64,000 bases of DNA from a virus (taxonomy: Duplodnaviria > Heunggongvirae > Uroviricota > Caudoviricetes). How positions within the stretch are numbered: position 1 is the first letter of the stretch; each line of letters opens with the position of its first letter. Below are positions 1-64,000 of this stretch, one piece after another. The stretch lies in IMG/VR virus record IMGVR_UViG_3300029705_006930; one strand, written 5' to 3'. A program made the translations under genes and the position numbers. Below the pieces are notes generated by a model. The model was given only the letters and a program-made list of their open reading frames with translations, ran no database searches and was not told the origin of the DNA.

Positions 1-71
1 TTGTATCTACCCCGCCACAAAATTCATACAGGGCGCAATTTTCACAATTGCAATATTCATCGAACAATATA
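1..71 (-). CDS. hypothetical Cys-rich protein, 5' part only (runs off window start)
   Basis: AAGGAGG (87-81, minus) is followed 9-12 nt later by ATA/TTG. The frame (L)FDEYCNCENCALYEFCGGVDT stays open to position 1. Confidence 0.3.
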
Positions 72-109
72 AGCAATTTCCTCCTTTGCTATATTTTTGT
101 ACTTTAACT

Positions 110-1441
110 CTATATCTCATTTTCAATCTCCTCATCTTCATCGTTATATCGTATCGGACTACCTACGGGAAGCATCTCTAAAAATGCTGCTCCAGGCAAC
201 CAATATTTACTTCCATCATTTGTTCTTTTTGCAACTGAAAAATGTATGTGTGCTATGCGTCCTAAATAATCATCTCTGTGTTCCCAAAATTCTTTGCGTT
301 CTTCATCGCTATATCCAAGAGGCAGCACGACGTTGCTACCTTTATAATCAACTATAAAACTCTGCAGTATATCTTCATTTTCTTTTTTTGTGTAATCAAC
401 TATCATCAAATCTGCTTCATGCATTTGTCTTAGGTATAAGAAACTTTCACTGTTCTGTCGGTATTTATATAAGTCATAATCAAGATTAACTAAAATTCCT
501 GCGTATCCTTTTTCTTTGGCTACTCTGAATGCTTTTAAAATATTTCCTCTGTAACGTCCATTAAATAAAATCGGGGCAAGTTGTATATGTTCGGTAGGTG
601 TAAAATTCGTCTCTAAAAATGTTCGTCGGTCTTTATATATGTTTTTACATGTCTTACGGTTAAATTCTTTCAAAGATAATATGTCATAGATATAAAATAT
701 AATGTCACTTTTATCGCGCTCTGGCAGTCGGACTATCCATCGCTCTTTCATTCGGCGGTCATAAGGGGAGAGGTCTTTTGCATCCTCACCTTTATAAACA
801 AGTTCGCCATCAAATACCACTTCATCAAACGGCAAGTCATTAAATTCCTGCAAGAGTTCATCGAAGCCCTCAAGGACAATGCCGAAGCGTGTATACATTC
901 TTGCTTCGCCACATTCTTTGATAACAGCGCAGCGGGTGCCATTGTACCAACCGGAAACTGTGAACTGTCGCTGACGCACATAGTCTTCGTTACCATAGTA
1001 CAGCCCCGGCATCATCAATGGGATTTCATAAACAGTTCCCGCGCCATATACTGTATTGACCTGTTTGGCTGAAACATTTATTTCAAGGTCTCTCAGCACC
1101 GCATCAATCAAAAAGTCGTGGAGCTCAGCGGGGTAGAGGGTAAGAGAACCATGTATCTTTGCCACAGCTTTTTTATTACCCGCCCCCATATATGTCAGAT
1201 ATTCAAGCAGGTCATCACCTTCGCCTGTCACAAACGGCACAACGTCTTCGGCTGTAATTTCGGACGGCGCCCATTTATCAAAGATAAGGAAACGGCTTAA
1301 CCCAAGACGCGTTTTCCCAAACTGATACAATAAAAAGTCTGTCCACTTGGTATTTGTTGCATTACGGCGCAATATGCGTATTTTTTCATCATAAGATGTT
1401 GTGGCCGCCAACGCATCTGCAATTTGTTTAATTTCGTGTAT
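110..1441 (-). CDS. ATP-dependent DNA ligase-like protein with degenerate catalytic motifs (pseudo-ligase paralog of 55427-56749)
   Basis: Collinear with the ligase at 55427. VVFDGELV (motif III), IIFYIYDIL and the OB-domain end LGYSDEERKEFW are kept. Motif I reads SGWYNGTR (Lys to Trp), motif IV AGILVN (Glu to Ala) and motif V FLYLR. Start is set at ATA 1441, which lies 8 nt after GGGGG; the track's TTG at 1411 has no SD. Confidence 0.6.
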   Translation of the reverse strand: MHEIKQIADALAATTSYDEKIRILRRNATNTKWTDFLLYQFGKTRLGLSRFLIFDKWAPSEITAEDVVPFVTGEGDDLLEYLTYMGAGNKKAVAKIHGSLTLYPAELHDFLIDAVLRDLEINVSAKQVNTVYGAGTVYEIPLMMPGLYYGNEDYVRQRQFTVSGWYNGTRCAVIKECGEARMYTRFGIVLEGFDELLQEFNDLPFDEVVFDGELVYKGEDAKDLSPYDRRMKERWIVRLPERDKSDIIFYIYDILSLKEFNRKTCKNIYKDRRTFLETNFTPTEHIQLAPILFNGRYRGNILKAFRVAKEKGYAGILVNLDYDLYKYRQNSESFLYLRQMHEADLMIVDYTKKENEDILQSFIVDYKGSNVVLPLGYSDEERKEFWEHRDDYLGRIAHIHFSVAKRTNDGSKYWLPGAAFLEMLPVGSPIRYNDEDEEIENEI

Positions 1442-2620: not shown

Positions 2621-3442
2621 CTACCCATTTAATGCGCTGTCAATACTGTCCGCCATCGCATTAATTTCGCCCTGTGTTATTGTAAGGTATGTTTTTGTTA
2701 CGCGCTGGTCACTGTGCTTGTACTTTGCCTGCAAGATGTCCATAACACTGTCGTTGTTCATTGTTTTGCGCGCTGTGTATCCGTATGTTTTGCGCAGTGT
2801 ATGTGTTGCCACGTTCTGTGTGAGGCCCGCCGCCTTTGCACCTTTCTTTAAAATGTCCCACATTTGGTGCAGGCTCATTTGCCCGCCATTGTCACTTTTC
2901 TGGGACTTGATAAGGTAGTCGCTCATTGTATAGTTGCCGTTGAGATGTTCAATGTACATTTCAATGGCTTTTTTTGCGCCCGCTGTTATTTTGTTGCGAT
3001 TGTACTTGCCGGTCTTTTGTTCGTACACATCATAGTAATCTTTTACTGTACCATCCTCATTGAGAACGTCACTGATGCGCGCTCTGAGCAGGTCACTGCC
3101 TCTGTCCCCAATGGTGCAGCCAAACACTACCATCATATAATTGCGGTACTTGTGTCGGCCCCCATGTTCAAGGAAGTAGTTTGCGAGACGCTGAAATTCG
3201 TCCGCGCTGTAAAGAGGCTCTGCACTCTGTGCCTTTTTCACGCCATTGCTTTTGTAAGGCGACGCTGTTCTTGGTGCACGCTGTTTTGGCGCTGGCTTTG
3301 CTGCGGCCATTGCCTGAGCCACTGCATTTGCTATGATGCTCTGGAGCTCGTCCTGTGTCATTTGGAGCTTTGGTGCTGCCGCCTGTGCAGGAAAGTTGAT
3401 TGTATTATTCTGTACGTTTTGTTCTTTTGGCTGAGCGTTCAT
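2621..3442 (-). CDS. int: tyrosine recombinase / phage integrase (small, 273 aa)
   Basis: Catalytic-domain motifs are present: GDRGSDLLRARISDV (Arg), ATHTLRKTYGY (H-x-x-R) and HSDQRVTKTYL (His and the Tyr nucleophile). GGAGG SD. Confidence 0.8.
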   Translation of the reverse strand: MNAQPKEQNVQNNTINFPAQAAAPKLQMTQDELQSIIANAVAQAMAAAKPAPKQRAPRTASPYKSNGVKKAQSAEPLYSADEFQRLANYFLEHGGRHKYRNYMMVVFGCTIGDRGSDLLRARISDVLNEDGTVKDYYDVYEQKTGKYNRNKITAGAKKAIEMYIEHLNGNYTMSDYLIKSQKSDNGGQMSLHQMWDILKKGAKAAGLTQNVATHTLRKTYGYTARKTMNNDSVMDILQAKYKHSDQRVTKTYLTITQGEINAMADSIDSALNG

Positions 3443-4545: not shown

Positions 4546-5241
4546 ATGAAAAAACTCACAAGAAAACAGCTTAAAGCAATAAAAAACACATCAAGCTACA
4601 AATATTTTGAACAATTGAAAACCCTTAAAGGCTCAATGCCGGCAGACAGCAAAAAAACCTATATAGAGCCAAATTCAGACCTTGAAAAATTCGCAAAATT
4701 GCAAGTTATGACCTTAAACAAATATATCCGCCAAGACGGCAAGGGACACAACTTGGCAGCACAAGTTTTGCAAGATTTACAACAGCAAGCTTGTTTGCTT
4801 ATTCTGGAAAACCCTTTAAGCCTTGACTGCTTTACAACAGAACAAGATAAACAGACAGAACAACAGCAACAAGCATTTAAGGCGGTTAAAAATGGTTTAT
4901 ATAGGTATTATTATCACAACTATACAAGCCGCAGCACATCTAAAATTCACAATAACCCGTCAAGTTACATTGCAACAGCTACATATCAAGCAACCGACGA
5001 TATCGGCAAAGATGCACGCGACAGCTATCAAATGGACCTTTACAAATTACATCTGGATGCAATTTTGACAATTTTAACAACGGATGAAAAATACATCTTT
5101 AATGGTTTATTTGTTGAAAACTTAACACAAAAACAACTTGCCGAAAAACTCAATAAATCACAAACTTATGTAGCAAAAACACTTGCAAATATCCGTAGCA
5201 AAATCAAAGCAAATGACCTTGATACACCGATAAACAATTAA
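4546..5241 (+). CDS. sigma-70 region-4-like HTH transcription factor (possible phage sigma factor)
   Basis: Start ATG 4546 after GGAAGG. The C-terminus LTQKQLAEKLNKSQTYVAKTLANIRSKIK resembles a region-4 HTH. Confidence 0.5.
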   Translation: MKKLTRKQLKAIKNTSSYKYFEQLKTLKGSMPADSKKTYIEPNSDLEKFAKLQVMTLNKYIRQDGKGHNLAAQVLQDLQQQACLLILENPLSLDCFTTEQDKQTEQQQQAFKAVKNGLYRYYYHNYTSRSTSKIHNNPSSYIATATYQATDDIGKDARDSYQMDLYKLHLDAILTILTTDEKYIFNGLFVENLTQKQLAEKLNKSQTYVAKTLANIRSKIKANDLDTPINN

Positions 5242-33370: not shown

Positions 33371-33658
33371 ATACATGAAAAGGCACCATCGGAACAACAA
33401 AGTAAATATGTCAGAGATATTATTAGATGGTTAGGCAAGGAGCCTCCTCACGAATTTTCTGCAGCGGCATATTATCAGTTTATAAGAGAAAATATTGACG
33501 AGCTGAAAAAAGTTCAGGCACATTATTACGAAGAACGTGGTAAAACATTGTGGGTAAGTCCATATAAAAAGAGCGGACAAAGTAAACATCATTATTATTC
33601 TGTTATGGATGAAGAAGAGGATGCTGATTGGCGAGCCAGCATGGATTTTGATTGGTAG
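33371..33658 (+). CDS. hypothetical protein lacking a canonical start (putative ATA start)
   Basis: The frame 33353-33658 is protein-like (SEQQSKYVRDIIRWLGKEPP...). AGGAG lies 5 nt before ATA 33371. The only nearby ATG (33375) is out of frame and gives 19 codons. Confidence 0.5.
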   Translation: MHEKAPSEQQSKYVRDIIRWLGKEPPHEFSAAAYYQFIRENIDELKKVQAHYYEERGKTLWVSPYKKSGQSKHHYYSVMDEEEDADWRASMDFDW

Positions 33659-40029: not shown

Positions 40030-40060
40030 GGGAAAAGGGGCTGACAATATGAAATGAACC

Positions 40061-40738
40061 ATAAGAAGAGGAAGACGATTTTCCTCATGTATTTTATGTA
40101 CGTTTTTAATTTTAATATTTTCAATTTGTCCCACAGTTAATGCTTACGCATACAATGAGGGCACAAATTCAGATGTATATTCATTATATGGCAATTTTGA
40201 TATCAAGTTGAAGAAATATGCTTATTTGCAATGTCGACAAAATAATTTGTCATACTCCATGTTTTTAGCAGTCGTATACAACGAAAGCAGATTTCAGACA
40301 GATGCCGTGCACATAAATCAAAATGGTTCGATAGATAGAGGATTGTGTCAGATTAATGATGCTTGTTTTGACTTTTTATATAACAAGGGTGTTTTGAATT
40401 CAAAAGAAGAATTATTTAATCCTTATATAAATATCGACTGTTATATAGCACTGATGAAGTATCACAAAACGTATACAAGAGACGATAGCAAGGCATTACT
40501 TAGATATCAGGTAGGCGAAGGTAAATATCGCCGTAAATATAATGAAGGCACACTGACTAACCCAACACATCAAAGGGTTTTAGATTTGGAATTAAAATAT
40601 CGTACATATTTAAATTCTCTTTCAGCACAGTTAGAACTTCAGAATGTTATTACAACACCTTATTTGTTGAATGATTATCCGGAGTTAAATCGATTGTTGC
40701 TTTTTAAAATATATGACACACATAACATACTAATTTGA
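40061..40738 (+). CDS. secreted lytic transglycosylase (SLT domain); start unresolved
   Basis: SLT motifs VVYNESRF and GSIDRGLCQIN. The frame is open from 40058 and encodes the signal peptide RRGRRFSSCILCTFLILIFSICPTVNAYA. See the finding at 40034-40738. Confidence 0.7.
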   Translation: MRRGRRFSSCILCTFLILIFSICPTVNAYAYNEGTNSDVYSLYGNFDIKLKKYAYLQCRQNNLSYSMFLAVVYNESRFQTDAVHINQNGSIDRGLCQINDACFDFLYNKGVLNSKEELFNPYINIDCYIALMKYHKTYTRDDSKALLRYQVGEGKYRRKYNEGTLTNPTHQRVLDLELKYRTYLNSLSAQLELQNVITTPYLLNDYPELNRLLLFKIYDTHNILI

Positions 40739-45381: not shown

Positions 45382-46188
45382 ATGAGCAGAAAAGTAAGAA
45401 ACAAAACTGGAGCTGTTTGTTTTAACACCGATGGTAAAGAATTTACATATCTTGATGATGGCACTCGTGATAGACATAACAATATTTTATATAAGGTGAT
45501 ATTCAAAAGTGGATATTCAACTTATGTTCAGGCTAACAAAATAGTCACTGGAAATATTCATGATTATGGCAGTCCAACAATACATGGCGTTGGATGTACT
45601 GATTACAAAGGCGCGTCTTACGAGCCAGAATATAAACTGTGGATTAAAATTTTTCACAGATGTTACAGTACTTCATATCATAAGAGATTTCCATCATACA
45701 CTAATTGTTCAGTTGATTTAAGATGGCATCACTATTCTCATTTTAAAAATGACATCAATAAAATTTGTAATTATAAAGAATGTTTACAATATAATGATGG
45801 GAAACGCCTTGTTATTGATAAAGATATCTTAGTTTATAAAAATAAACAATACTCATTACAAACTTGTTGTATAGTTCCTGAGCCCATCAATATTTTTATC
45901 ACTAATGTTAAATCTGACAATACATCTGGTTTAATCGGAGTGCATAAACGTCATAGTCACTATGTTGTCGTGTTTTCATATAAAAATCAGACAATACAGG
46001 GAGGAACATATAGCAATCCTGTTGATGCTGTCAATGCATATTATCAGCATAAATTATGCAAACTAGCAGATTTGTTAATTCAATATGATTGGATTGATGA
46101 CCGAGTAAAAACAGGATTATATGCATATTTTGATAAACAAAAAGAAGAGCAGCTTCGCATTGCTTTAGCACTTCAAAAAATCAGATAA
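45382..46188 (+). CDS. AP2-domain DNA-binding protein, probable free-standing homing endonuclease
   Basis: NTSGLIGVHKRHSHYVVVFSYKNQTIQGGTYSNPVDAVNAYY resembles an AP2 domain. It is inserted between the helicase and primase genes. Confidence 0.5.
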   Translation: MSRKVRNKTGAVCFNTDGKEFTYLDDGTRDRHNNILYKVIFKSGYSTYVQANKIVTGNIHDYGSPTIHGVGCTDYKGASYEPEYKLWIKIFHRCYSTSYHKRFPSYTNCSVDLRWHHYSHFKNDINKICNYKECLQYNDGKRLVIDKDILVYKNKQYSLQTCCIVPEPINIFITNVKSDNTSGLIGVHKRHSHYVVVFSYKNQTIQGGTYSNPVDAVNAYYQHKLCKLADLLIQYDWIDDRVKTGLYAYFDKQKEEQLRIALALQKIR

Positions 46189-46217
46189 GGCGGTGAGGCT
46201 TTATCAATGTATTACAA

Positions 46218-47234
46218 TTGAATGATTATCTGCAAGCACGTCCGGACGACGTACTTAAAGTCCTTAATTCATTGGGATTACCTAATTTGTCACATAACAG
46301 AGGACGAAATGAAATCAGATATTCATCAAGAGTAGGTAGCAATCCTACCTCAAATATTTTTTATTTAGATACACTTAGGTATTACAGCTTTTCAATGGGT
46401 GAAAGTGGAAATCTTTACACATTGGTGATGAACAATCAGAATTGTAATTTCCCGCAAGCCTTAGAATATGTGGCGCAAGTAGTTGGACTTTCCAAAAATG
46501 AATTCAATACTGAAATCAAATTACCATTTGGTGGCTTCTATAAAAAACTCATAAAACAACAGCGCGAACCTGAGTTGGACATACCTACATATCCTGATTC
46601 GCTCCTTGAGGAATACAACGGGCAGCTAAGTCTACAATTTTTTAATGATGGCATCAATTTCCAAACACAAGAAAAATATCATATTGGGGTTGATTTTTCT
46701 GCAATGCGCATAGCAATTCCACAATGGACAATTAATGGTCAGTTATGCGGAATTATGGGCAGAGCAATGGGAAAAGATGTACCGCATGAAGAACGTTGGC
46801 TACCTATTATTCCGTGCACGAAAAGCTACACATTATTTGGCTATCATCAAAACTATCATAAAATTCAAGAAAAAAATATGTGCATTGTATTTGAAAGTGA
46901 AAAAGCTGTATGTCAGCTTGATAGTTTTGGTTGTTATATTGGACTTGCAACAGGGGGATGTCATATTTCTTCAACACAAGCCAAATATTTGCGTGCATTA
47001 AGAGTTGAAAAAATTATTATTGCTTATGATGAGGGCCTTGATGAAGAACATATTATTGCCCAGGCACAAAGACTTCGCAGTAATGAAAATCAGCTTGTTA
47101 GAGGAGCGAAGATAGGATATATCTGGGACGATAATAATACATATTTGCCACTTGGCAGCAAAATGAATGCAGCTGATGTTGGTAAAGAAAAATTTATAAA
47201 ATTAATCAAAGAAAAAGTGAGGTGGCTCGAATAG
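46218..47234 (+). CDS. dnaG: DNA primase (DnaG-like, Toprim)
   Basis: VFESEKAV...IIAYDEGLDEE (Toprim E and DxD). The TTG start overlaps the stop of a 4-codon leader ORF. Confidence 0.7.
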   Translation: MNDYLQARPDDVLKVLNSLGLPNLSHNRGRNEIRYSSRVGSNPTSNIFYLDTLRYYSFSMGESGNLYTLVMNNQNCNFPQALEYVAQVVGLSKNEFNTEIKLPFGGFYKKLIKQQREPELDIPTYPDSLLEEYNGQLSLQFFNDGINFQTQEKYHIGVDFSAMRIAIPQWTINGQLCGIMGRAMGKDVPHEERWLPIIPCTKSYTLFGYHQNYHKIQEKNMCIVFESEKAVCQLDSFGCYIGLATGGCHISSTQAKYLRALRVEKIIIAYDEGLDEEHIIAQAQRLRSNENQLVRGAKIGYIWDDNNTYLPLGSKMNAADVGKEKFIKLIKEKVRWLE

Positions 47235-48325
47235 CTGTAAGAGAAAAAGATATAACACTTGAAGAATTACAAAAACAAGGTAAAAAATTATATTCAATTT
47301 CAAAAGCAGACACAATTGACCAGTGTCATTATCAGGCATATCTTGCATACATCGTACACAGTAAATCGGTTCCTAATATTTATTCATTAATGGGTTCTAA
47401 AATTCATGACACTTTAGAAGGCATTATGAATCAGAAAAATACAACGGAAGATTTGATTGTAGCTCTAGATAATGAGCTTGAAGATATGCAAATGCTTGGA
47501 TTTGATTTTCCTCGCGATAGCAGAGGAAAAACATCTATCCGTGATAATTGGATAAAAAATATGCGTCATTTCTGTAGCAATTTTATACCGCCACGAGGCG
47601 AGTTTGAAACTGAACAGTTATTTATATATCCACTCACAAAAGACAGATATGTACGAGGTTATATTGACCTTGTTCAGCATCTGGATAAAGATACAAAAAC
47701 AATTTCAATTTGGGACTGGAAAACTTCCTCACAATTTTCTCAGGAAACATTATTGGAACACGGCAGACAGCTTGTTATATATGCCATTGCAAAAGAAGCA
47801 GAAGGCTATACCGTCAAAGACGTAGGCTGGATAATGCTTAAATATGTTGAAATTGTTTTTCAAGGCAAATTGCGCAGAAATTCTAAAGAAAAAACTAAGA
47901 TTACCAAAGTTTGTGACCGTTATAAGATAGTACAAACATTGCAGCCATATTTAGAGCAAGAGCTGATAGAAGCTGGCTATGATGATATAGATATTGAAAT
48001 GTTTATGATAGATGCACTGGAAAATAATTCATTGGATAAGCTTCCAAATGAAATTCGTTCCAAATTTATCATTAAACCATATGTAAGGCGCTATCCGATA
48101 ACCGAAAAGCTCAAACAGGAAACCTTAGATTACATAAATCATCAGGCTGATATTTTTGAGTCATTGCCTAAAAATGATAAATCAGCCTGGAAGCCTAAAG
48201 TGATTGATAAAGGCAATGAATTTTTCTGCAATTATCTTTGTGATTATAAGTCTTCTTGCGAATATATTGCCAGATATAATCTTGAAAAACAGTTGGCAAA
48301 AACTTCAGATGAAGAATTATTTTAG
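47231..48325 (+). CDS. PD-(D/E)XK exonuclease with Cas4/AddB-like Cys cluster; C-terminus SDEELF
   Basis: GYIDLV...IWDWKTS. Cys in DQCHY plus CNYLCDYKSSC. Start is ATA 47231, or GTG 47222 which lies inside the SD. Confidence 0.7.
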   Translation: MAVREKDITLEELQKQGKKLYSISKADTIDQCHYQAYLAYIVHSKSVPNIYSLMGSKIHDTLEGIMNQKNTTEDLIVALDNELEDMQMLGFDFPRDSRGKTSIRDNWIKNMRHFCSNFIPPRGEFETEQLFIYPLTKDRYVRGYIDLVQHLDKDTKTISIWDWKTSSQFSQETLLEHGRQLVIYAIAKEAEGYTVKDVGWIMLKYVEIVFQGKLRRNSKEKTKITKVCDRYKIVQTLQPYLEQELIEAGYDDIDIEMFMIDALENNSLDKLPNEIRSKFIIKPYVRRYPITEKLKQETLDYINHQADIFESLPKNDKSAWKPKVIDKGNEFFCNYLCDYKSSCEYIARYNLEKQLAKTSDEELF

Positions 48326-49006: not shown

Positions 49007-49275
49007 ATTCTAAATGCCGTTTAATTTAGTAATAAATTAAATAATTACTGGGGAAAATCGGTGAAGTCCTCCAATGATATAGGATAATACCGAGGTAAAC
49101 AATAAAATTGCGTAAGGTTTATTGTCACCGTAGAGCATAGATAGTGAATAAATATAATCTATCCAAGAGTCTCCAGCATCCCACCTAAATATAGAGGATG
49201 AAAATATATGCCGAGCTTACATAATGGAAAAATGTAAGAACTATGGGGTAAAAAACCTATAGGATAACAAAACTG
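49007..49275 (+). mobile_element. putative ORF-less group I intron (3' boundary 49263 or 49275)
   Basis: P1-like hairpin 49004-49018 with a U-G wobble at 49006/49016. Several internal hairpins. A G precedes both candidate 3' sites, and either one restores the TAT codon and the frame. Confidence 0.5.
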
Positions 49276-51809
49276 ATATGGACTATCCCTCTGACAATGA
49301 ATGCATAAAGCGTTTTTTAGACCAAGGAATTTTTACTGAGACAGAAATTCAACGTGCAATGGATAACACAGATATCTGCTTAACATTTGAGAATTTTTAT
49401 TTTAGTAAAGATATTAAACTACCAACTTTATATCCAGACAAGACTCAAGAGGAAAAGAACAAGATATATTCAAGACTGATTACAAAAAAGTTTAAAGAAT
49501 ATATGAAATATGTTCCTGCTGAAGACTATGACAGATATTATCAAGGTGTTAAAGAAGAAGTTCAGGTATATAAAGATACTGGTATGGTTGACTATCCGCT
49601 AATCAACTATGAAGTTATTAAGCGCGGGATTGAATTGGGCGGGGTAATTACAGATAGTGGACGTGGTTCCGCTGTTGGCTTCTTCACAAACACATTGTGT
49701 GGATTCTCAAAAGTTGACCGTTTTACATCTGCAATTCATCTTTATCCAGAGCGCTTTATGTCAACAAGCCGAATATTAGAGTCCGGCTCCCTACCAGATA
49801 TTGACTTTAACGTAGCTAATACTGAGCCTTTTGAACGAGCACAAAAAGAAATACTTGGAGAAGAACATTCATATCCAATGATTGCATTTGGCACTTTGAA
49901 AAAGAAATCTGCTTTTAAGCTTTATGCAAGAGCAAAAGATGTGCCAGCTGCCATTGCAAATGAAATCACAAAACAGATTGAAAAATATGAAAATGATTTA
50001 AAACATGCCGATGATGATGACAGGCGCGATATAAATATCTATGACTATGTAGATGAACAGTATCATGACCATTTGAGACAGAGTGAATCATATTGGGGTA
50101 TCATTTCTGACCGCAAAAAAGCTCCATCGGCACATCTCTTATATCAAGGCAATATTCGTAAAGAAATTGGGCTCATTAAATGTAAGAGTGAAAGTACCAA
50201 GAAGGAATGCATCACTTGTGTTATTGATGGTGCAGTCGCAGAAGAATATAAATTTTTGAAAAATGACCTGCTCACTGTAAATGTGGTGGATATTATTGAC
50301 CGTGTTTTTAAACGTATTGGCATTGAGCATTTTAATGTAAATACATTGTTGGGACTTATTAAAAATGATAAACCGACTTGGGATATTTATGCTAAAGGTT
50401 TGACTATAGGTGTTAACCAATGTGAAAAAGCCTCAACAACAAAAAAAGCAATGCGATATAAACCACGAAACCCATCTGAGCTCTCGGCATTTATAGCAGG
50501 TATTCGTCCAGGCTTTAAATCAATGTATCCGATTTTTGAAAGTAGACAGCCGTTCTCATATGGAGTTGCTACACTGGATAATCTGCTGATTACCGAAGAA
50601 CTTCCGATTCCCTTTATGATTTTCCAGGAACAGACAATGAAAGTCCTTAACTATGCTGGATTTCCAATGGACGAATGCTATGGTCTTATTAAAGCTATCA
50701 GTAAAAAGAAACCAGAAAAGGTAAAAGCAATCAAAGATGATTTTATTAAAAATTTCTGCAAACAAATTCAAGAAGATAATGGACTTGATTTTGAAATTGC
50801 ACAAAATAACAGTGAAAAAGTATGGACAGTAGTAAATGATAACTCAGGTTATGCATTTAACAGTTCTCATGCATACTGTATGGCGTTGGATAGCTTATAT
50901 TGTGCTTATCTCAAATCTCACTATCCTTATGAATTTTATGAGGTACTTCTCACATTTTATTCCAACAAAGGCAACAAAGATAAAGTTGCTGAACTGAAAA
51001 GAGAAATGCTCCAAGGTTTTGGTATCAGAGAAGGCAAGTTTAAGTTTGGCAATGATAATCGCAGCTTTAAAGCCGACAAAGAAAACGGTGTTATATATTC
51101 ATCACTATTATCATTAAAAAATATGAACCAGAAATGTTCTGAGGACTTATATGCTTTATCACAAAAAAAACAATATACAAACTTTTTTACACTGCTCAAA
51201 GATATTAAACAACTTAAGAGTCTGAAATCTGACCAGCTTAATATTTTGATTAATATTGGATATTTTGATGATTTTGGTACAGTCCCACAGATTCAGACAT
51301 TTGTAAAAGCATATGACGACCTTTATGGACGAGCTCAATTTTCCAAAGATAATCTGGATGCTAATTATGCAGCACTTATTGCTGCTGACAGTACGCAGAC
51401 TGAAAAACAATATCGCAACTTTGATTATGAAAATGCATTGCATAAATTGTGGATGCAAATTCCGCCAATTAAATTAGGTTTGCATCAGAAAATTAAAAAC
51501 GAACTTGAATATTTTGGATACATACAAACAATCATACCAAAGCTCTCAGATGAATATGTAGTCGTAACTGATAAGATTGACAAATATTCGAAACTGACGG
51601 TCACGGTTTATGTATTACAGACTGGAGCAATTCATACTTATCGAATGCGAAGCAGAGTTGCAGAGCAATGCGGAACAATTAATGTGGGCGATATTATTAA
51701 ACTGATGAAGTTTAGCGAAGAAAAGAAATGGACAAAAAATGTCAACGGAGATTGGGTACACACAGATGAAACCGAAACACTCATTAAAAAATATGCACTG
51801 ACAAGATGA
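49276..51809 (+). CDS. dnaE: DNA polymerase III alpha (DnaE-type), exon 2 / polymerase core
   Basis: GRGSAVGFF...VDRF...PDIDFNV (palm), then the finger and OB-like regions. Confidence 0.85.
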
Positions 51810-51820
51810 GGTGATATTGT

Positions 51821-52339
51821 ATAGCATTTACAGCAAAAGAAATTGAATATTTACAACAACATATTACAGTGCTTGTCGATACACGTGAAAAGGTATGGGA
51901 ACATATTAGGCAATATCTTATTGCAAATGATATTCCATATAAAATGCAAACACTGCAAAGTGGTGATTATTCCTTCATTTTGGAATATGACGACCAAGTA
52001 CATATATTTGTAAAGCAGATAGTAATTGAACGCAAGAATTCTTTAACAGAACTAGCAGCTTGTTTTTCTACAGAGCGAGCCAGATTTGAACGTGAATTTG
52101 AACGACTTAAAAAATCTAAAACCATGTGTTTTTTACTTGTAGAGAATAGTTCATTCGATGGTATATACAAGGGCAACTATCGCACACAAATGAATCCGAA
52201 ATCATATGAAGCCAGCTTAATATCTTGGCTTACAAAGTATAATATCATTCCAATTTTTTGTGATAAAGAAAATAGTGGACGGGTTATTCATAATATTTTT
52301 AAACAATACTTGCGGAATTACTTGTTAGATAAAATTTAA
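51821..52339 (+). CDS. ERCC4/Mus81-type nuclease (putative structure-specific endonuclease or resolvase)
   Basis: VDTREK...GDYSF...IERKN. GAGGTGA lies 6 nt before ATA 51821, whereas GTG 51869 has no SD. Confidence 0.65.
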   Translation: MAFTAKEIEYLQQHITVLVDTREKVWEHIRQYLIANDIPYKMQTLQSGDYSFILEYDDQVHIFVKQIVIERKNSLTELAACFSTERARFEREFERLKKSKTMCFLLVENSSFDGIYKGNYRTQMNPKSYEASLISWLTKYNIIPIFCDKENSGRVIHNIFKQYLRNYLLDKI

Positions 52340-56765: not shown

Positions 56766-58065
56766 ATGAACGTAAAAGATTGGCTTGGAGAAGAAAATCA
56801 GCTCGGCATTGATATTGCTACAAAAAAATATATTAAAAACGAATCCTTTGATGAATTTATCGGAAGAATTTCAAATAATAATCCAGAAATTAAAAGAATT
56901 ATTTTAGAAAAGAAATATCTGCATGGTGGCAGAACACTCAGTAACTACAATACGGGTAATGGTGCATCCACATCCAACTGTTATTCAAGTGGTTACTGCC
57001 CGGATGATACAGCAGGTATTCTGGAGCTAAATAAAAATATAGGTCTTACATATAAAGCACAGGGTGGGCAGGGTTTATCTCTGAGTAAAATCCGTCCAAA
57101 GGGCTGTAAAATCAGCAAAGGTGGATATGAAACTGATGGCATCATTCCATTTATGCAGATGTTTGATACTACAACAGCAAGTATTTCACAGGGCGGTTCA
57201 AGAAAAGGAGCTCTGATGATGTCTCTTGACTGCTGGCATAAAGAGGTTAAAGATTTTATCACAATCAAAACCGATACAAATCTTATTACAAAAGCAAATC
57301 TGTCAGTTGAAATTGACGATGAATTTATGACCTGTGTCAGAAAATATTATGATGAAGGCTTGGTATTTGAAAAACAAGTAAACTTTACTTATGATGGCGG
57401 TGAAACCAGATATATGGTGAAACCTATTGAAGTATATCAGCTGATTTGTAAAACGGCTCATGAATATGCTGAGCCAGGCATTATCTATACTGAGCAGTTT
57501 CGCAACTATAATTTAATGCAGTACGATGATGAATATCAGATTGTAACTGGTAACCCATGTGGAGAACAGCCTTTGCCACAGAATGGGGCGTGCAATCTGG
57601 GCAGTATTAACCTTGCAGAATTTGTAAAACACCCATATTCATCAGAATCAGAGTTTGATTTTGTAGATTTCCGCAATACAGTAGAAATTGCAATCAGAGC
57701 ATTGGATGACGTACTGGATTATGGTGCTGAACTTCATGCTTTGCCAGAACAGAGAGAAATGGCAAAGAATTATCGCAATATAGGTCTTGGCATTATGGGC
57801 CTTGCTTCAATGCTTTTTAAGATGGGCATTAAATATGGCAGTGATGAATCTCTCCATCTTGTAGATACCATTGGCTATACAATGTTTAGAACTGCTTTGG
57901 AGACATCTACTGAGCTCGCAAAAGAAAAAGGAACTTTCCCAAAATATAAAGATGTTGTTTTTGATGCAGAAATTATTAAGGCACATTTTAATGCAGACGA
58001 AATCGCAGAGCTCCGCAAATATGGTCTTCGCAACTGCTCATTGCTTTCAATCGCTCCAAGTGGGT
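56766..58065 (+). CDS. nrdJ: class II (B12-dependent) ribonucleotide reductase, exon 1
   Basis: GGRTLSN, NPCGEQPL and LLSIAPSG. ATG 56766 after GGGGGAA. Confidence 0.85.
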
Positions 58066-59266
58066 TGACTAACTGGCTCACATAAAACATTTTTAATTGC
58101 TGGAACATCCTTAGAGCTTCATAAACTACAACATAATGATGAAATATACATAAGTGTGAATGTTTGAAAATTATGAAGATTGGATAATCAGCAGCGAAGC
58201 TCTGAATAGGAGAACGTTCAACGACTATCCCTTAATGGGAGTACACTGCAAGTGATTGGCAGTGGAAATAAAATGTACTAATTATTTATAAACTTAGGTA
58301 AAAGTAATAATAGAATTAAAAAATATAACATATGACGACATATATAATTTATATATAACACAACAAAAATCACAGCGACAAGTAGCAAACATACTTCACA
58401 TTGGGCAAACATCGGTTAGAAGGTTGTTACAAAAATATAATATTCCATCTAGGACTTCAGAAGAAAGCAAACAAACTCCAGATTTCATTGCTCGTCAAGC
58501 AGAACTTGCTCATAGATATCAAAATGAGTATAGAAAAATAATTGTCAAACAGTGTAAATGGTGTGGAAAAGATTTCGAAGTAGATGGTGAACATAAAAGA
58601 AAAAAATATTGCTCCCCAGAATGTGTTTCTATGTCTCAAAAATCTAAAACCAAAACACAATTTTGCCAGCGTTGTGGTAAAGAAATAAAAATATCATCTG
58701 GAAGACATTATAAAAGAATCTATTGTGATGAATGTAATGTTGTTGGCAGAAGTGAAAAGCAAATTAATAAGATACAAACTACTTGTGGATATTGTGATGC
58801 AAAAATCGAAGTAATTCCAAGTGTATATAAGGCAAATCGTTTTTGTTATTGCGATATGAATTGCATGGCTAAGCATTACGCAGAAATATATAGCGGGGAA
58901 AATAATCCCTCTTGGAAAGGTGGAAAATCACATCATTACACAGGTGGGTTTTATAATGCTCGGCAAAAGGCAAGAGAAAGAGATAAATATACTTGTCAAA
59001 TATGTGGAATTACGGAAACTGACTTTGGTCAACAAATGAGTGTGCACCATATCAAAAATTATAGATTATTTGAAGATAAGGCTGAAGCAAATAAACTTGA
59101 TAATTTAATATGTCTATGTGAACCTTGTCACCGATTTGTACATTCGAACAATAATAAAGAAGGATTGTTTATAAATAATTAGTAAAGATATAGTCTCAAC
59201 TTATATGAAAATATAAGCAGCCAGAAGATGGCGGCGATGGTGTAGCGAACCATCGCGAAGACATTG
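58066..59266 (+). mobile_element. group I intron carrying an HNH homing-endonuclease ORF
   Basis: P1 forms between exon GTGGGT (58060-65) and GCTCAC (58076-81), with a U-G wobble at 58065/58076. The intron ends in G59266. Splicing yields APSG-S-IGTMLNVTTGCEP and a total length of 2280 nt (760 codons). Confidence 0.7.
58424..59182 (+). CDS. HNH homing endonuclease (intron-encoded); the N-terminal HTH extends upstream to about 58325
   Basis: Several CxxC pairs and CQICG...VHHI...CEPCHRFVH (HNH). The upstream in-frame ITQQKSQRQVANILHIGQTSVRRLLQKYNI is an HTH with no canonical start codon. Confidence 0.75.
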   Translation: MLQKYNIPSRTSEESKQTPDFIARQAELAHRYQNEYRKIIVKQCKWCGKDFEVDGEHKRKKYCSPECVSMSQKSKTKTQFCQRCGKEIKISSGRHYKRIYCDECNVVGRSEKQINKIQTTCGYCDAKIEVIPSVYKANRFCYCDMNCMAKHYAEIYSGENNPSWKGGKSHHYTGGFYNARQKARERDKYTCQICGITETDFGQQMSVHHIKNYRLFEDKAEANKLDNLICLCEPCHRFVHSNNNKEGLFINN

Positions 59267-60246
59267 CAATTGGCACAATGCTCAATGTGACAACAGGATG
59301 TGAACCTGCATTTAGATTGTCATATAAACGTAAAACAGAAAGCTTACATAAAGATAAAGAAGTTTATTACGATGTATTTCTTCCGGAAATAGAAGAATTT
59401 AAACGTCTTTACCCAAACAAAGAATTGCCAGAGTACTTTGTATCAAGTGAAAATATTTGCTGGGCAGACCGAGTAAAAATGCAGTCAGTATTGCAGGAAC
59501 ATATTGATACAGCTATTTCATCAACAGTAAATCTGCCAAATTCAGCAACAATTGAAGATGTTGAAGACCTGTATTTGTATGCTTGGGAACAAGGTCTTAA
59601 GGGTATTACAATCTACCGTGATGGCTGTGCAAGAACTGGTATTCTCACAACAGATAAAACTGGTAAAAAAGAATCACCTGAAACATCGGAAAAGATAATA
59701 TCAGCTGAATTGCCAAGAGGCTACATTATGGATGTAAGTGACGACCTTATTGGTTATAAACGTAAACTTAATACAGGTTGTGGTTCAATTCATATGGAAG
59801 TATATTTCGATGAAATATCTGGTGAACCACAAGAAACCTTTGTCAACATTGGCTCTAGCGGCGGCTGTGAACGTAATTATCAACTCATCTCACGCCTTAT
59901 ATCTCTTGCATTAAGAGGTGGTGTTCCAATTGAATCTATCATTGACCAAACAATGAGTATTCGCCCTTGCACAGCTTATATCAACAGAACAAAAGCAAAA
60001 GGGGATACTTCAAAGGGAACTTCTTGCCCGAGCGCCATAGGCTATGCTTTACAAGAATTACAAAAGAAAATTAATGATAGGTGTTTTGGTTGCGAAGAAG
60101 AAATTGCAGAATCAGAATGCAATTGTAATATAGAAGACAAAGCAAGAATAAGTACATATACACCTTGTCCAGAATGTTCATCCCAATTGCAATTTGAAGG
60201 TGGTTGTATTATCTGTAAAAATTGTGGGTGGTCAAAATGCGATTAA
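59267..60246 (+). CDS. nrdJ: class II ribonucleotide reductase, exon 2
   Basis: TTGCEPAF, TGCGSIHMEVYFDE and a C-terminal zinc ribbon CPECS...CKNCGWSKC. Confidence 0.85.
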
Positions 60247-62203: not shown

Positions 62204-62233
62204 ATAGAGCCGTCAGATAAGCGGCGGCTCTAT
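62204..62233. other. 9-bp perfect inverted repeat upstream of the serine recombinase (terminator or candidate recombination site)
   Basis: ATAGAGCCG-N12-CGGCTCTAT. Direct GTGAAC repeats at 62147 and 62161. Confidence 0.5.
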
Positions 62234-62267
62234 AATATAATACATTATTATACAAGGAGGTATTTTT

Positions 62268-62411
62268 ATAGGAGAAGATTTTAATTATACATATCAAAAT
62301 AATTACACACTTGTTACTTTTGACGATGAAACTAATTTACATATCATTTTAAAATTTACCGATGACTCCAACGATATGTTCGACATGTTTGTCGAGGAGC
62401 TTATATCATAG
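62268..62411 (+). CDS. 47-codon ORF with putative ATA start
   Basis: AAGGAGG lies 7 nt before ATA 62268. The sequence GEDFNYTYQNNYTLVTFDDETNLHIILKFTDDSNDMFDMFVEELIS is protein-like. No canonical in-frame start. Confidence 0.4.
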   Translation: MGEDFNYTYQNNYTLVTFDDETNLHIILKFTDDSNDMFDMFVEELIS

Positions 62412-62419
62412 GAGGCTAT

Positions 62420-64000
62420 ATGAAAAGAGTTGCATGTTTATATCGTGTTTCAACAAAAGGACAAGTTGATAAAGATGACATTCCTATGCAGCGTAAAGAA
62501 TGCAGTGAATTTATTAAAAAACAGGGATGGCAATTAGTCAATGAATATTATGAAAAAGGTGTCAGTGGCTATAAAAAATCAGCAGACCAACGTGATGTAT
62601 TGCAAACAATCAAGAATGATGCTTTAAATAATCAGTTTGACATTCTGCTTGTCTATATGTTTGACAGATTAGGACGACGCGAAGATGAAACTCCATTTAT
62701 TCTTGAATGGTTTACAAAACAAGGTATAGAAATGTGGAGTGTTAAAGAAGGCCAACAGTCCTTTTCACAACATATTGATAAATTACTTAACTACATACGT
62801 TTCTGGCAAGCCAGCGGTGAAAGTCATAAGACTTCTATGCGTGTTGATAGTAGCCATAGGCAAATGGCTGAAGAAGGCAAATTTAGAGGCGGCGATGCAC
62901 CATATGGATATATGCTTGTAAAAACAGGTGTATTCAATAAAAAGAAAAAAGAATTATTAAAATTAGTCATCAATACCATTGAGGCCCCTATTGTGCAGCT
63001 TATATATAAGTTAGCTTTGGAGGGATATGGTCAAACAAAAATAGCCAAATATTTAAATGAGCACGGCATAAAAACTCGAAACAATAAAATGTGGAATAGT
63101 GGTACAATTGGTTATATCCTAAAAAATCCAATTTATAAAGGTTATCCTGCATATAGAAAGAAAACAGGACAAGGAGAGGGAGTTCATAATTTGCCAAGTT
63201 CAGAATGGATATTATCTTCGGCACAGCAAATTGAGCTTGTTATAATTTCAGAGAATGATTGGGATAGAGTGCAGGAATTACGTACACAACATCATAATTC
63301 TCCTAATCATAACACAATCACAAATTCACCATTATTATTAGTTGGGTTGACTTACTGTGGATGCTGTAAAAGTCCATTGACTACCACTTATTCATATAAG
63401 TACAATAAAGATAAAACAAAGGTATATCAGCGACCAAAATATCGTTGCTCTGGTAAGGCAAATGCAAAAGCACTCTGTGATGGACAAACCGTTTATAGCG
63501 CAGAGAAATATGAAAAAGCTGTTTTAAATCAGATTGATATTTATTTAAATAAAATCAAAAATACACCACAATCTCAACAAGATACAACAGCTAATGATTT
63601 TCAAAAAAATATTAAATCTCTCGAGCATAAATTAGCAAAAATCAATAATATGATAGAAATATTATCTGATGAAGTTGGTAATGCCTTGATAGGAGAAAGT
63701 CGATTTACACCAGAAGTTTTGGCAGAACAAATTAACAAAAAACAACAAGATAAAATTTTAATACAAAATGAACTTGACAAAATAAAACAAGAGGCAGATA
63801 ATTATAACCATGAACAAATCAATACACAGCAATTAAACCAAGTTATTCCAATCTGGAAAGAAAGGTTTGACGGATTTTCAACTGAAAAGAAAAAACGTTT
63901 ATTGCGTATCTTGATTTCACGCATTGAATTTAATAGAGATACAATTATTATAGATTTTAATACAACTATTCAATGCTTTTTAGATGCTATCACTGCATAA
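62420..64000 (+). CDS. large serine recombinase (integrase type)
   Basis: N-terminal resolvase domain CLYRVSTKGQ...DILLVYMFDRLGRR, a recombinase domain, the zinc-ribbon Cys pairs GLTYCGCCKS and YRCSGK...CDG, and a C-terminal coiled coil. The stop falls at 63998-64000. Confidence 0.9.
   Translation: MKRVACLYRVSTKGQVDKDDIPMQRKECSEFIKKQGWQLVNEYYEKGVSGYKKSADQRDVLQTIKNDALNNQFDILLVYMFDRLGRREDETPFILEWFTKQGIEMWSVKEGQQSFSQHIDKLLNYIRFWQASGESHKTSMRVDSSHRQMAEEGKFRGGDAPYGYMLVKTGVFNKKKKELLKLVINTIEAPIVQLIYKLALEGYGQTKIAKYLNEHGIKTRNNKMWNSGTIGYILKNPIYKGYPAYRKKTGQGEGVHNLPSSEWILSSAQQIELVIISENDWDRVQELRTQHHNSPNHNTITNSPLLLVGLTYCGCCKSPLTTTYSYKYNKDKTKVYQRPKYRCSGKANAKALCDGQTVYSAEKYEKAVLNQIDIYLNKIKNTPQSQQDTTANDFQKNIKSLEHKLAKINNMIEILSDEVGNALIGESRFTPEVLAEQINKKQQDKILIQNELDKIKQEADNYNHEQINTQQLNQVIPIWKERFDGFSTEKKKRLLRILISRIEFNRDTIIIDFNTTIQCFLDAITA

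Follow-up and report, generated by a model that had tools for sequence, protein, structure and literature searches.

The window analysed here is a stretch of 64,000 nt of viral DNA (Caudoviricetes; IMG/VR record IMGVR_UViG_3300029705_006930), and the subject of this study is a small set of its open reading frames (ORFs) in which a strong Shine-Dalgarno (SD) sequence is followed, at a suitable distance, by ATA or ATC rather than by a canonical start codon. The window is a prophage with a GC content of about 35% and tightly packed plus-strand genes. A replication module of the SPbeta type, a serine recombinase at the prophage end and a YonO-type RNA polymerase gene just to the left of the window lead us to assign it to the SPbeta-like temperate phages. 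The replication module comprises YorH, a YorJ-type primase, a DnaB-family helicase, AAA_24 and the alpha subunit of DNA polymerase III (PolIII-alpha), with Pfam matches to Phage_SPbeta_YorH, DnaB_C, AAA_24 and DNA_pol3_alpha, and in the annotation of phage c-st the primase homologue is named 'YorJ-homolog' and the helicase homologues are YorI-type. The closest cultured phages have hosts in the Bacillales and Clostridia, the polymerase gave a single distant match against GTDB genomes (a metagenome-assembled genome of Christensenella sp., 53% identity), and the window end gave no match with phage genomes by megablast. At least 10 independent assemblies from JGI, ENA and Logan match the window with 99.97-100% identity, including every ATA codon examined. 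ARAGORN identified no tRNA genes within the 64-kb window, which is part of a longer prophage, and a search of the whole window against Rfam, including two intron-like inserts, gave no match at the gathering threshold.

AUH codons behind strong Shine-Dalgarno sequences

An initial annotation, made from the sequence alone, described five main sites at which ATA occupies the start position behind an SD (62268, 33371, 51821, 47231 and, on the minus strand, 1441), and at all five positions the sequence is as it was described. SD strengths are expressed here as the duplex energy (dG) with a Bacillus-type anti-SD, which is assumed and may not be that of the host, and ATA, ATT and ATC are collectively referred to as AUH. 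In a table of about 105 genes, nearly all starts are ATG with SD duplexes of about -8 to -15 kcal/mol, and about eight genes lack any canonical start served by an SD; ATA, which accounts for 2.15% of codons, is found at four of these eight (P ~2e-4 to 9e-4). Genome-wide scans based on SD 5-mers or on the 'best-SD codon' were too noisy, and an SD-anchored scan of 109 ORFs was used instead, in which the strongest SD of each ORF was located without regard to the codons and the in-frame codons 5-12 nt downstream were read. A strong SD (dG <= -12.6) combined with an in-frame AUH codon and no canonical start was found in exactly five ORFs, at 1441 (minus strand), 46203, 47231, 51821 and 62268, with dG values of -12.6 to -14.8 and aligned spacings of 6-9 nt. 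At 1441, 46203, 51821 and 62268, no canonical start is served by the same SD, and the approximately 100 remaining genes of the window have canonical starts. The discrete minority class that had been proposed was therefore recovered, but it is a class of AUH rather than of ATA codons: ATA is present at four of the sites, and the ATC of the primase gene at 46203 had been overlooked. A comparative set of about 150 related phage loci (designated L with a number) was also considered. The scan of the 22-kb loci of relatives flagged only the primase and PD-(D/E)XK nuclease genes, the 10-19 other genes per locus being canonical; the ERCC4 gene of L002 counted as canonical here owing to a TTG at 4-nt spacing. 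Alignment of orthologues, which had been proposed as a check, placed the start column at the AUH codon for the ERCC4, PD-(D/E)XK, ligase and primase genes.

The gene for an ERCC4-type nuclease (51821-52339, plus strand) has 172 codons from the ATA at 51821 and is preceded by an extended SD, GAGGTGAT (51808-51815; dG -13.4, aligned spacing 9), which overlaps the TGA stop codon of the polymerase gene (51807-51809). Gene callers begin the gene at the GTG at 51869 (156 aa), which lacks an SD (dG +1.3), and the alignment with distant homologues begins at the third residue past the ATA, upstream of this GTG. An alignment-based scan of IMG/VR yielded 80 ERCC4 loci, mostly on contigs of 100-160 kb, in which the D of the VDTRE motif served as the anchor for the start column and the strongest SD was again located codon-blind. 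The codon at an aligned spacing of 7-10 nt was ATT in 16, ATA in 15 and ATC in one of 61 distinct contexts, so that AUH codons occupy 32 of the 61 start columns, against 28 canonical codons and one disrupted column; these counts include a reclassification of L053 and L116. Contexts of the YKYTD type have only ATA, ATT, ATC or ATG in the start column, as read off the codon strings, and 10 AUH contexts (e.g. L104) contain no in-frame canonical codon anywhere 5' of the catalytic domain. The close relatives L049 and L054 differ by a switch between ATA and ATT, and no difference involving ATG was found in this column among the close pairs examined. The mean SD energy was -13.4 for AUH contexts and -9.3 for canonical ones (Mann-Whitney p=1e-5), many of the former SDs being of the extended GGAGGTGAT type, and the AUH ORFs are all 173-178 codons long. 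Close pairs had ratios of nonsynonymous to synonymous substitution rates (dN/dS) of 0.013-0.16, and the ATA persists at dS values of about 1-1.5. These comparisons identify the AUH ERCC4 genes as constrained genes with a predicted start at the AUH codon.

The DNA primase gene, encoding the SPbeta YorJ homologue (46203-47234, plus strand), begins with ATC AAT GTA behind AAGGCGGTGAGG (46187-46198; dG -13.9, aligned spacing 9). The ATG at 46207 is out of frame, and the TTG at 46218, from which gene callers obtain a protein of 338 aa rather than the 343 aa counted from the ATC, is 19 nt from this SD and has no SD of its own (dG -1.1). The I-N-V encoded by the first three codons aligns with the M-N-V (ATG AAT GTA) of the cultured phages Perkons and LC76P1. 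ATT is found in this column in L001-L003, L004 and L005, in each case behind a very strong SD (dG about -19 in the last two), and AUH codons were found in 13 of 31 distinct IMG/VR contexts, about 18 being canonical. No canonical start codon is available in L004, L005 and L168.

The gene for a PD-(D/E)XK (Cas4-like) nuclease (47231-48325, plus strand) begins at the ATA at 47231, which overlaps the primase stop codon (ATAG) and lies 5 nt after GTGAGGTGG (47217-47225; dG -14.8). This SD itself holds an in-frame GTG (47222), and gene callers assign 367 aa to the protein. ATG is present exactly in the ATA column of the window in L134 and L139, 20 residues before a 'YSIS' motif, and in L134 it directly follows an in-frame TAA. 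L140 has ATT just after an in-frame TAA, with the same geometry as in the window (GAGGTGG and 5 nt), and L001-L003 and L138 have ATA. ATA or ATT is therefore found in three distinct lineages (the window and L028; L001-L003 and L138; L140).

The ATP-dependent DNA ligase paralogue (110-1441, minus strand) has 443 codons from the ATA at 1441-1439, which is the first codon past an in-frame TAA and is located 8 nt from AAAGGGGG (1450-1457; dG -14.5). The TTG at 1411 used by gene callers (433 aa) has no SD (dG -0.8). In tblastn searches of phage genomes, many phage ligases align from query residue 1, and the annotated ATG or TTG starts of the ligases of Brevibacillus phage Sundance, Bacillus phage Thrax1, Geobacillus virus E3 and a Staphylococcus SPbeta-like phage are 0-2 codons from the ATA column (for example, MQELYEILQEIKNTNSK aligned with IHEIKQIADALAATTSY). 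The more distant ligase of L001 has ATT after AAGGAGAG. The ligases of L002 (14670) and L003 (13089) are 91% identical, the first with TAA-ATA and the second with TAA-ATG; in both, an internal ATA behind GAAGGT, six codons on, is a further candidate start. A search of IMG/VR for close relatives of the window ligase found only the same phage. In these alignments the start position of the ligase appears secure, and the conservation of an AUH codon at this position appears weak.

The fifth ORF, s1 (62268-62411, plus strand), has 47 codons from the ATA at 62268, which follows AAGGAGG (62254-62260; dG -12.6, aligned spacing 7), and there is no in-frame canonical codon until codon +36. Its stop codon, TAG (62409-62411), is part of the TAGGAGG that forms the SD of the gene for a large serine recombinase of 526 aa at the right prophage end (62420-64000, plus strand). 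The codon-usage score of s1 is 14.6, real genes scoring 13.6 +/- 5.3 and off-frame windows -31 +/- 15; its other two frames score -20.5 and -41.7, and none of 152 off-frame windows reaches the score of s1. Nothing was found for s1 in Pfam, and exact-protein look-ups of three neighbouring genes yielded only identical contigs and thus no diverged copy of the region. Related recombinases are also preceded by a small ORF, with TTG or ATG starts, but this is a positional analogy to s1 only. We regard s1 as a probable ATA-initiated gene, although it is the least verifiable site of the set, and it possibly tunes recombinase translation through coupling.

The recombinase has Pfam matches to Resolvase, Recombinase and Zn_ribbon_recom, taken from an identical called gene, and a host gene (PTS_EIIC_2) starts 193 nt past it. 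A 7-bp GC-rich hairpin (AGAGCCG…CGGCTCT; 62205-62235) without a U-tract is located just 5' of the s1 SD and overlaps TATAAT-like sequences; a scan found no consensus promoter or terminator there. In a set of human-gut metagenome contigs with recombinases 41-42% identical (L241-L320), 49 of the 80 loci contain a conserved 60-aa ORF (LNENYINENNIDSEHRIESVINDCKVTIYFSK…) about 250 nt upstream of the recombinase gene, with a TTG start behind AGGTGATAA. This ORF is an unannotated small protein family tied to that recombinase clade.

Sites outside the set and neighbouring genes

The site at 33371, an ATA 5 nt after AGGAG that opens a 95-codon ORF whose earliest canonical codon is at +59, does not belong to the set. 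A protein search at this site yielded two relatives. Relatives with 96% identical DNA (L026, L027 and L028) carry …ttcACAcATGAAAAAGGTA and read aaggagaattcACAcATGAAAAAGGTA, and their protein (P0002) begins MKKVPSEKQ. The A-run after the ATG at 33375 is A5 in these relatives and A4 in the window, L029, L031 and L032, and the ATA at 33371 corresponds to ACA in a 96%-identical relative. We therefore rejected an ATA start in favour of an ATG gene (33375-33658, plus strand) with a 1-nt deletion in the A-run at 33378-33381. L026 has an intact start but a frameshift of its own at a later A-run, and P0002 ends …DELKKFRHIITTNVVKHCG. By this comparison, the 95-aa accessory gene is decaying independently in both lineages.

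Three further sites had been listed as weaker cases. The case at 40061 is not sustained: the ATA is 20 nt from the SD, which serves an in-frame ATG at 40049 followed by AAA TGA. The corresponding gene for an SLT lytic transglycosylase (40049-40738) reads ATG AAA TGA, ACC ATA and then a classic signal peptide (RRGRRFSSCILCTFLILIFSICPTVNA), and a lineage with 94% identity retains the ATG-AAA-TGA; UGA read-through or a mini-ORF with reinitiation is possible. At 58325, the claim that the HNH ORF extends upstream of its first canonical start was borne out, since the alignment with distant homologues starts at residue 15 of the open frame, which places the N-terminus upstream of the TTG at 58424, where only ATA codons are available (58307, 58310 and 58325). 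However, there is no SD at 58325, and the ATA at 58307 follows a weak AGGT; an ATA start of this ORF is possible from the alignment. The ORF, with a helix-turn-helix at its N-terminus upstream of the first canonical codon, is carried by an intron-like insert (58086-59277) in the gene for ribonucleotide reductase (exons 56766-58085 and 59278-60246), in which Rfam detected no group I intron at the gathering threshold. The minus-strand site at 71 is ambiguous: the ATA is 9 nt from AAAGGAGG, but an in-frame TTG competes with it at 12 nt. This site belongs to a Cys-rich ORF of about 60 aa (…LFDEYCNCENCALYEFCGGVDTTDVKGCELFEPSEYYW…), extending from window positions 1-87 (minus strand) into 4830-4995 of the assembly L224. 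Missed by all gene callers, the ORF lies between the ligase gene and the next gene and ends in TAAATG at the start of the latter, which is YonO-like. This gene (L224, 4996-5927), to the left of the window and directly after the ligase operon, encodes 623 aa with a match to Pfam PF05183 (RdRP) and is reminiscent of the single-subunit RNA polymerase YonO of SPbeta.

Two other genes have unusual structures. Besides the serine recombinase, the window contains a 273-aa tyrosine-recombinase-like gene (Phage_integrase; 2621-3442, minus strand), which in the assembly L222 (1443-2262) is represented by two gene calls, of 123 and 135 aa. The PolIII-alpha gene is split by a 269-nt insert (49009-49277) into a PHP part (225 codons) and a polymerase part (843 codons), whereas in L028 (97-99% identical) it is uninterrupted (1068 aa, 225+843). 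The insert is probably an ORF-less self-splicing intron, and the ATG at 49278, which has a weak SD, is therefore best regarded as an internal methionine codon and not as a start.

Explanations for the putative AUH starts

We consider it likely, from the comparative data, that a small set of genes in this prophage starts at near-cognate AUH codons behind strong, often 3'-extended SDs, an arrangement that would attenuate their translation. The set would include the ATC at 46203 and the ATA codons at 47231, 51821 and 1441 (minus strand), and probably the ATA at 62268. The initial annotation was therefore partly confirmed, with four of its five main sites retained and one new site added: the ATA starts at 51821, 47231 and 1441 agree with the start columns of homologues, that at 62268 is probable but without homologues, and that at 33371 was lost to a frameshifted ATG gene. 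Its suggestion of deliberate low-level translation, which does not apply to 33371, is probably correct for the ERCC4 nuclease, the PD-(D/E)XK nuclease and the ligase, and also for the primase, as indicated by the homologue N-termini, the AUH conservation, the stronger SDs and the purifying selection in the comparative data.

In the proposed mechanism, which we infer from what is known of class IIA start codons and proofreading by initiation factor 3 (IF3) together with data from Staphylococcus aureus, the strong SD/anti-SD helix would hold a 30S subunit, or a ribosome newly terminated on the upstream cistron, over the AUH codon. The initiator fMet-tRNA would pair with a third-position mismatch, and IF3 would reject part of these complexes. 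The protein would start with methionine, and its output would perhaps lie between one tenth and one third of that from AUG. Enzymes needed sparingly or harmful in excess (primase, nucleases, ligase) would thus be produced in low yield, with the shared operon transcript left unchanged.

Several observations weigh against this reading. The AUH codon of the ligase is sporadic (the window, L001 and L002), most other relatives having ATG or GTG, and it could represent recent damage to the start codon. No homologues of s1 were found in a protein collection or in a scan of metagenome DNA, and a comparison of hhalign profiles revealed no similarity between s1 and the small ORFs upstream of related recombinases. 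L001 and L002 have a TTG one codon before the ATT of the ERCC4 gene, and the in-frame GTG at 47222, three codons upstream of the ATA at 47231, is conserved in L001-L003 and may be the start instead. Finally, genuine 5' lesions are present in the same prophage (the frameshift at 33375 and the in-frame TGA of the SLT gene), which indicates that some decay has occurred in it.

The alternative that survives best, although we regard it as unlikely, is a mechanistic variant of the attenuation reading, in which AUH codons are used only by just-terminated ribosomes (termination-reinitiation or 70S scanning, with laxer proofreading) whereas free 30S subunits would not use them. At four of the five sites an upstream stop codon lies within 0-14 nt, so reinitiation may contribute: the start overlaps the stop in the ATAG at 47231, the polymerase TGA is in the SD at 51808, the gaps at 46203 and 1441 are of 14 nt, and many relatives have a stop codon within the SD. 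However, s1 has no upstream ORF and is preceded by the hairpin and a 150-nt gap, and strong SDs favour SD-led positioning in either case. Moreover, reporters of S. aureus AUA and AUU starts to which only the initiation context was fused yielded about 10-30% of AUG expression (PMC13009471).

It is improbable that the AUH codons reflect start-codon decay, i.e. ATG-to-ATA changes that have knocked out genes of a degenerating prophage in which the ORFs are still intact. Decay has affected other genes, with a frameshift right after the ATG at 33375 and a TGA two codons after the ATG at 40049, and the first codon of the ligase is polymorphic (ATA in L002, ATG in L003) and not kept as AUH in other relatives. 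G-to-A is the commonest mutation in AT-rich genomes, but this bias cannot explain ATT and ATC, both of which require transversions. For the ERCC4, primase and PD-(D/E)XK genes, AUH recurs in the same column in dozens of diverged phages with full-length ORFs, and no ACG, AAG or AGG was seen in the start column. The dN/dS values of 0.01-0.16, the retention of ATA at dS above 1 and SDs stronger than those of the ATG orthologues also argue against decay. The gene at 33375 has the lesions expected of a pseudogene, being frameshifted here and independently in L026; the ERCC4, primase and PD-(D/E)XK genes have intact ORFs, low dN/dS values, stronger SDs and an AUH state that recurs in several lineages. 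General G-to-A hypermutation was also considered and rejected, since a rate hitting 5% of starts would fill long ORFs with nonsense codons and the ORFs are intact.

A still less probable explanation is that translation begins at the nearest canonical codon (GTG 51869, TTG 1411, GTG 47222 or TTG 46218), the AUH codon being a plain isoleucine codon or untranslated. The JGI, ENA and Logan gene calls use these codons (156, 433, 367 and 338 aa, respectively), and the conservation of the GTG at 47222 mentioned above is in its favour. Nevertheless, this GTG sits within the SD itself, and starts at the other three, which lack an SD, would remove N-terminal residues that align with homologues. In addition, no canonical codon is available in the ten ERCC4 relatives, in L140 for the PD-(D/E)XK gene or in the three primase loci referred to above.

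We found no support for the suggestion of the initial annotation that initiation might be modified by the phage, and a phage- or host-specific change (a special initiator tRNA, or an IF3 variant or inhibitor) that makes AUH codons efficient is very improbable. With about 5 of 105 genes, the frequency of AUH starts is far higher than in S. aureus, for which four AUA or AUU starts are reported in the whole genome. However, such a system is unlikely because AUH codons are limited to a few gene families with AUG neighbours, ATG orthologues coexist in sister phages and there is no tRNA gene in the window, and the host machinery alone suffices in S. aureus (PMC13009471). Editing of AUA to AUI by TadA was rejected because the UACG loop motif is absent from the sites, which have ATAG or ATAC-A as their context. 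Sequencing or assembly errors at the start codons can be dismissed for practical purposes, since the same bases, including the ATA codons, are present in no fewer than 10 independent assemblies that differ in sample and pipeline.

Known counterparts and implications

The closest anatomical parallel that we considered comes from S. aureus, in which Ribo-Ret placed the starts of infC, ccpN and citZ at AUA and that of cvfC1 at AUU, with extended SD motifs predicted for the infC, cvfC1 and ccpN sites (Nat Commun 2026, PMC13009471). The 10-30% reporter values given above were obtained for cvfC1, ccpN and citZ. As in the prophage, a strong or 3'-extended SD (GGAGGUGAU-like) precedes AUA or AUU, and the codon is conserved among relatives; this shared anatomy is why we read the prophage sites as putative translation attenuators. 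The S. aureus cases are chromosomal regulatory and metabolic genes, about four per genome, supported by Ribo-Ret and reporter evidence, whereas those described here are phage replication and repair genes, about five per 64 kb, conserved across an uncultured phage group and identified by comparison.

In Escherichia coli, infC and pcnB both have AUU, an IF3-sensitive class IIA start codon. They share with the prophage sites a near-cognate AUH codon that limits translation and is conserved since low output is selected, but they differ in their lower efficiencies and in the lack of long SDs. Furthermore, infC is autoregulated via IF3, and no feedback loop is evident at the prophage sites. The start/stop overlaps of coupled genes in phage operons (ATGA, TAATG) resemble the ATAG at 47231 and the upstream stop codon in the SD at 51808, but in the usual form of this coupling the restart codon is AUG or GUG rather than AUH. 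Bacterial dnaG, in the rpsU-dnaG-rpoD operon, is kept at low expression by poor initiation signals. In both systems, translation would hold the amount of primase below that of its operon neighbours, but by a weak ribosome binding site and rare codons for dnaG and by a strong ribosome binding site with a near-cognate start for the prophage primase.

As a long shot, the AUH genes may form a coordinated set wired to start-codon proofreading, including the small ORF coupled to the integrase. If so, the output of the whole set would rise jointly when IF3 is limiting or initiation fidelity is relaxed by a phage or host factor (for example on induction, under stress or with a change in growth rate), and the phage would have a translational timing switch that needs no transcription factor.

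The mechanism itself is known, but the searchable literature apparently contains no description of its conservation throughout a lineage in phage replication genes or of the systematic mis-annotation that follows from it. Gene callers shorten the ERCC4 nuclease (156 instead of 172 aa), the ligase (433 instead of 443 aa) and the primase (338 instead of 343 aa), misplace the start of the PD-(D/E)XK nuclease and miss s1 altogether, so that databases would hold wrong N-termini, or none, for roughly half of the family members. The natural pairs of AUG and AUH orthologues with matched changes in the SD would provide a system for studying the trade-off between SD strength and start codon. If the AUH starts are as proposed here, conserved near-cognate starts extend beyond chromosomal cases such as infC and would recur, under selection, in a widespread group of large Firmicutes temperate phages, affecting the same three or four replication and repair genes across the group.

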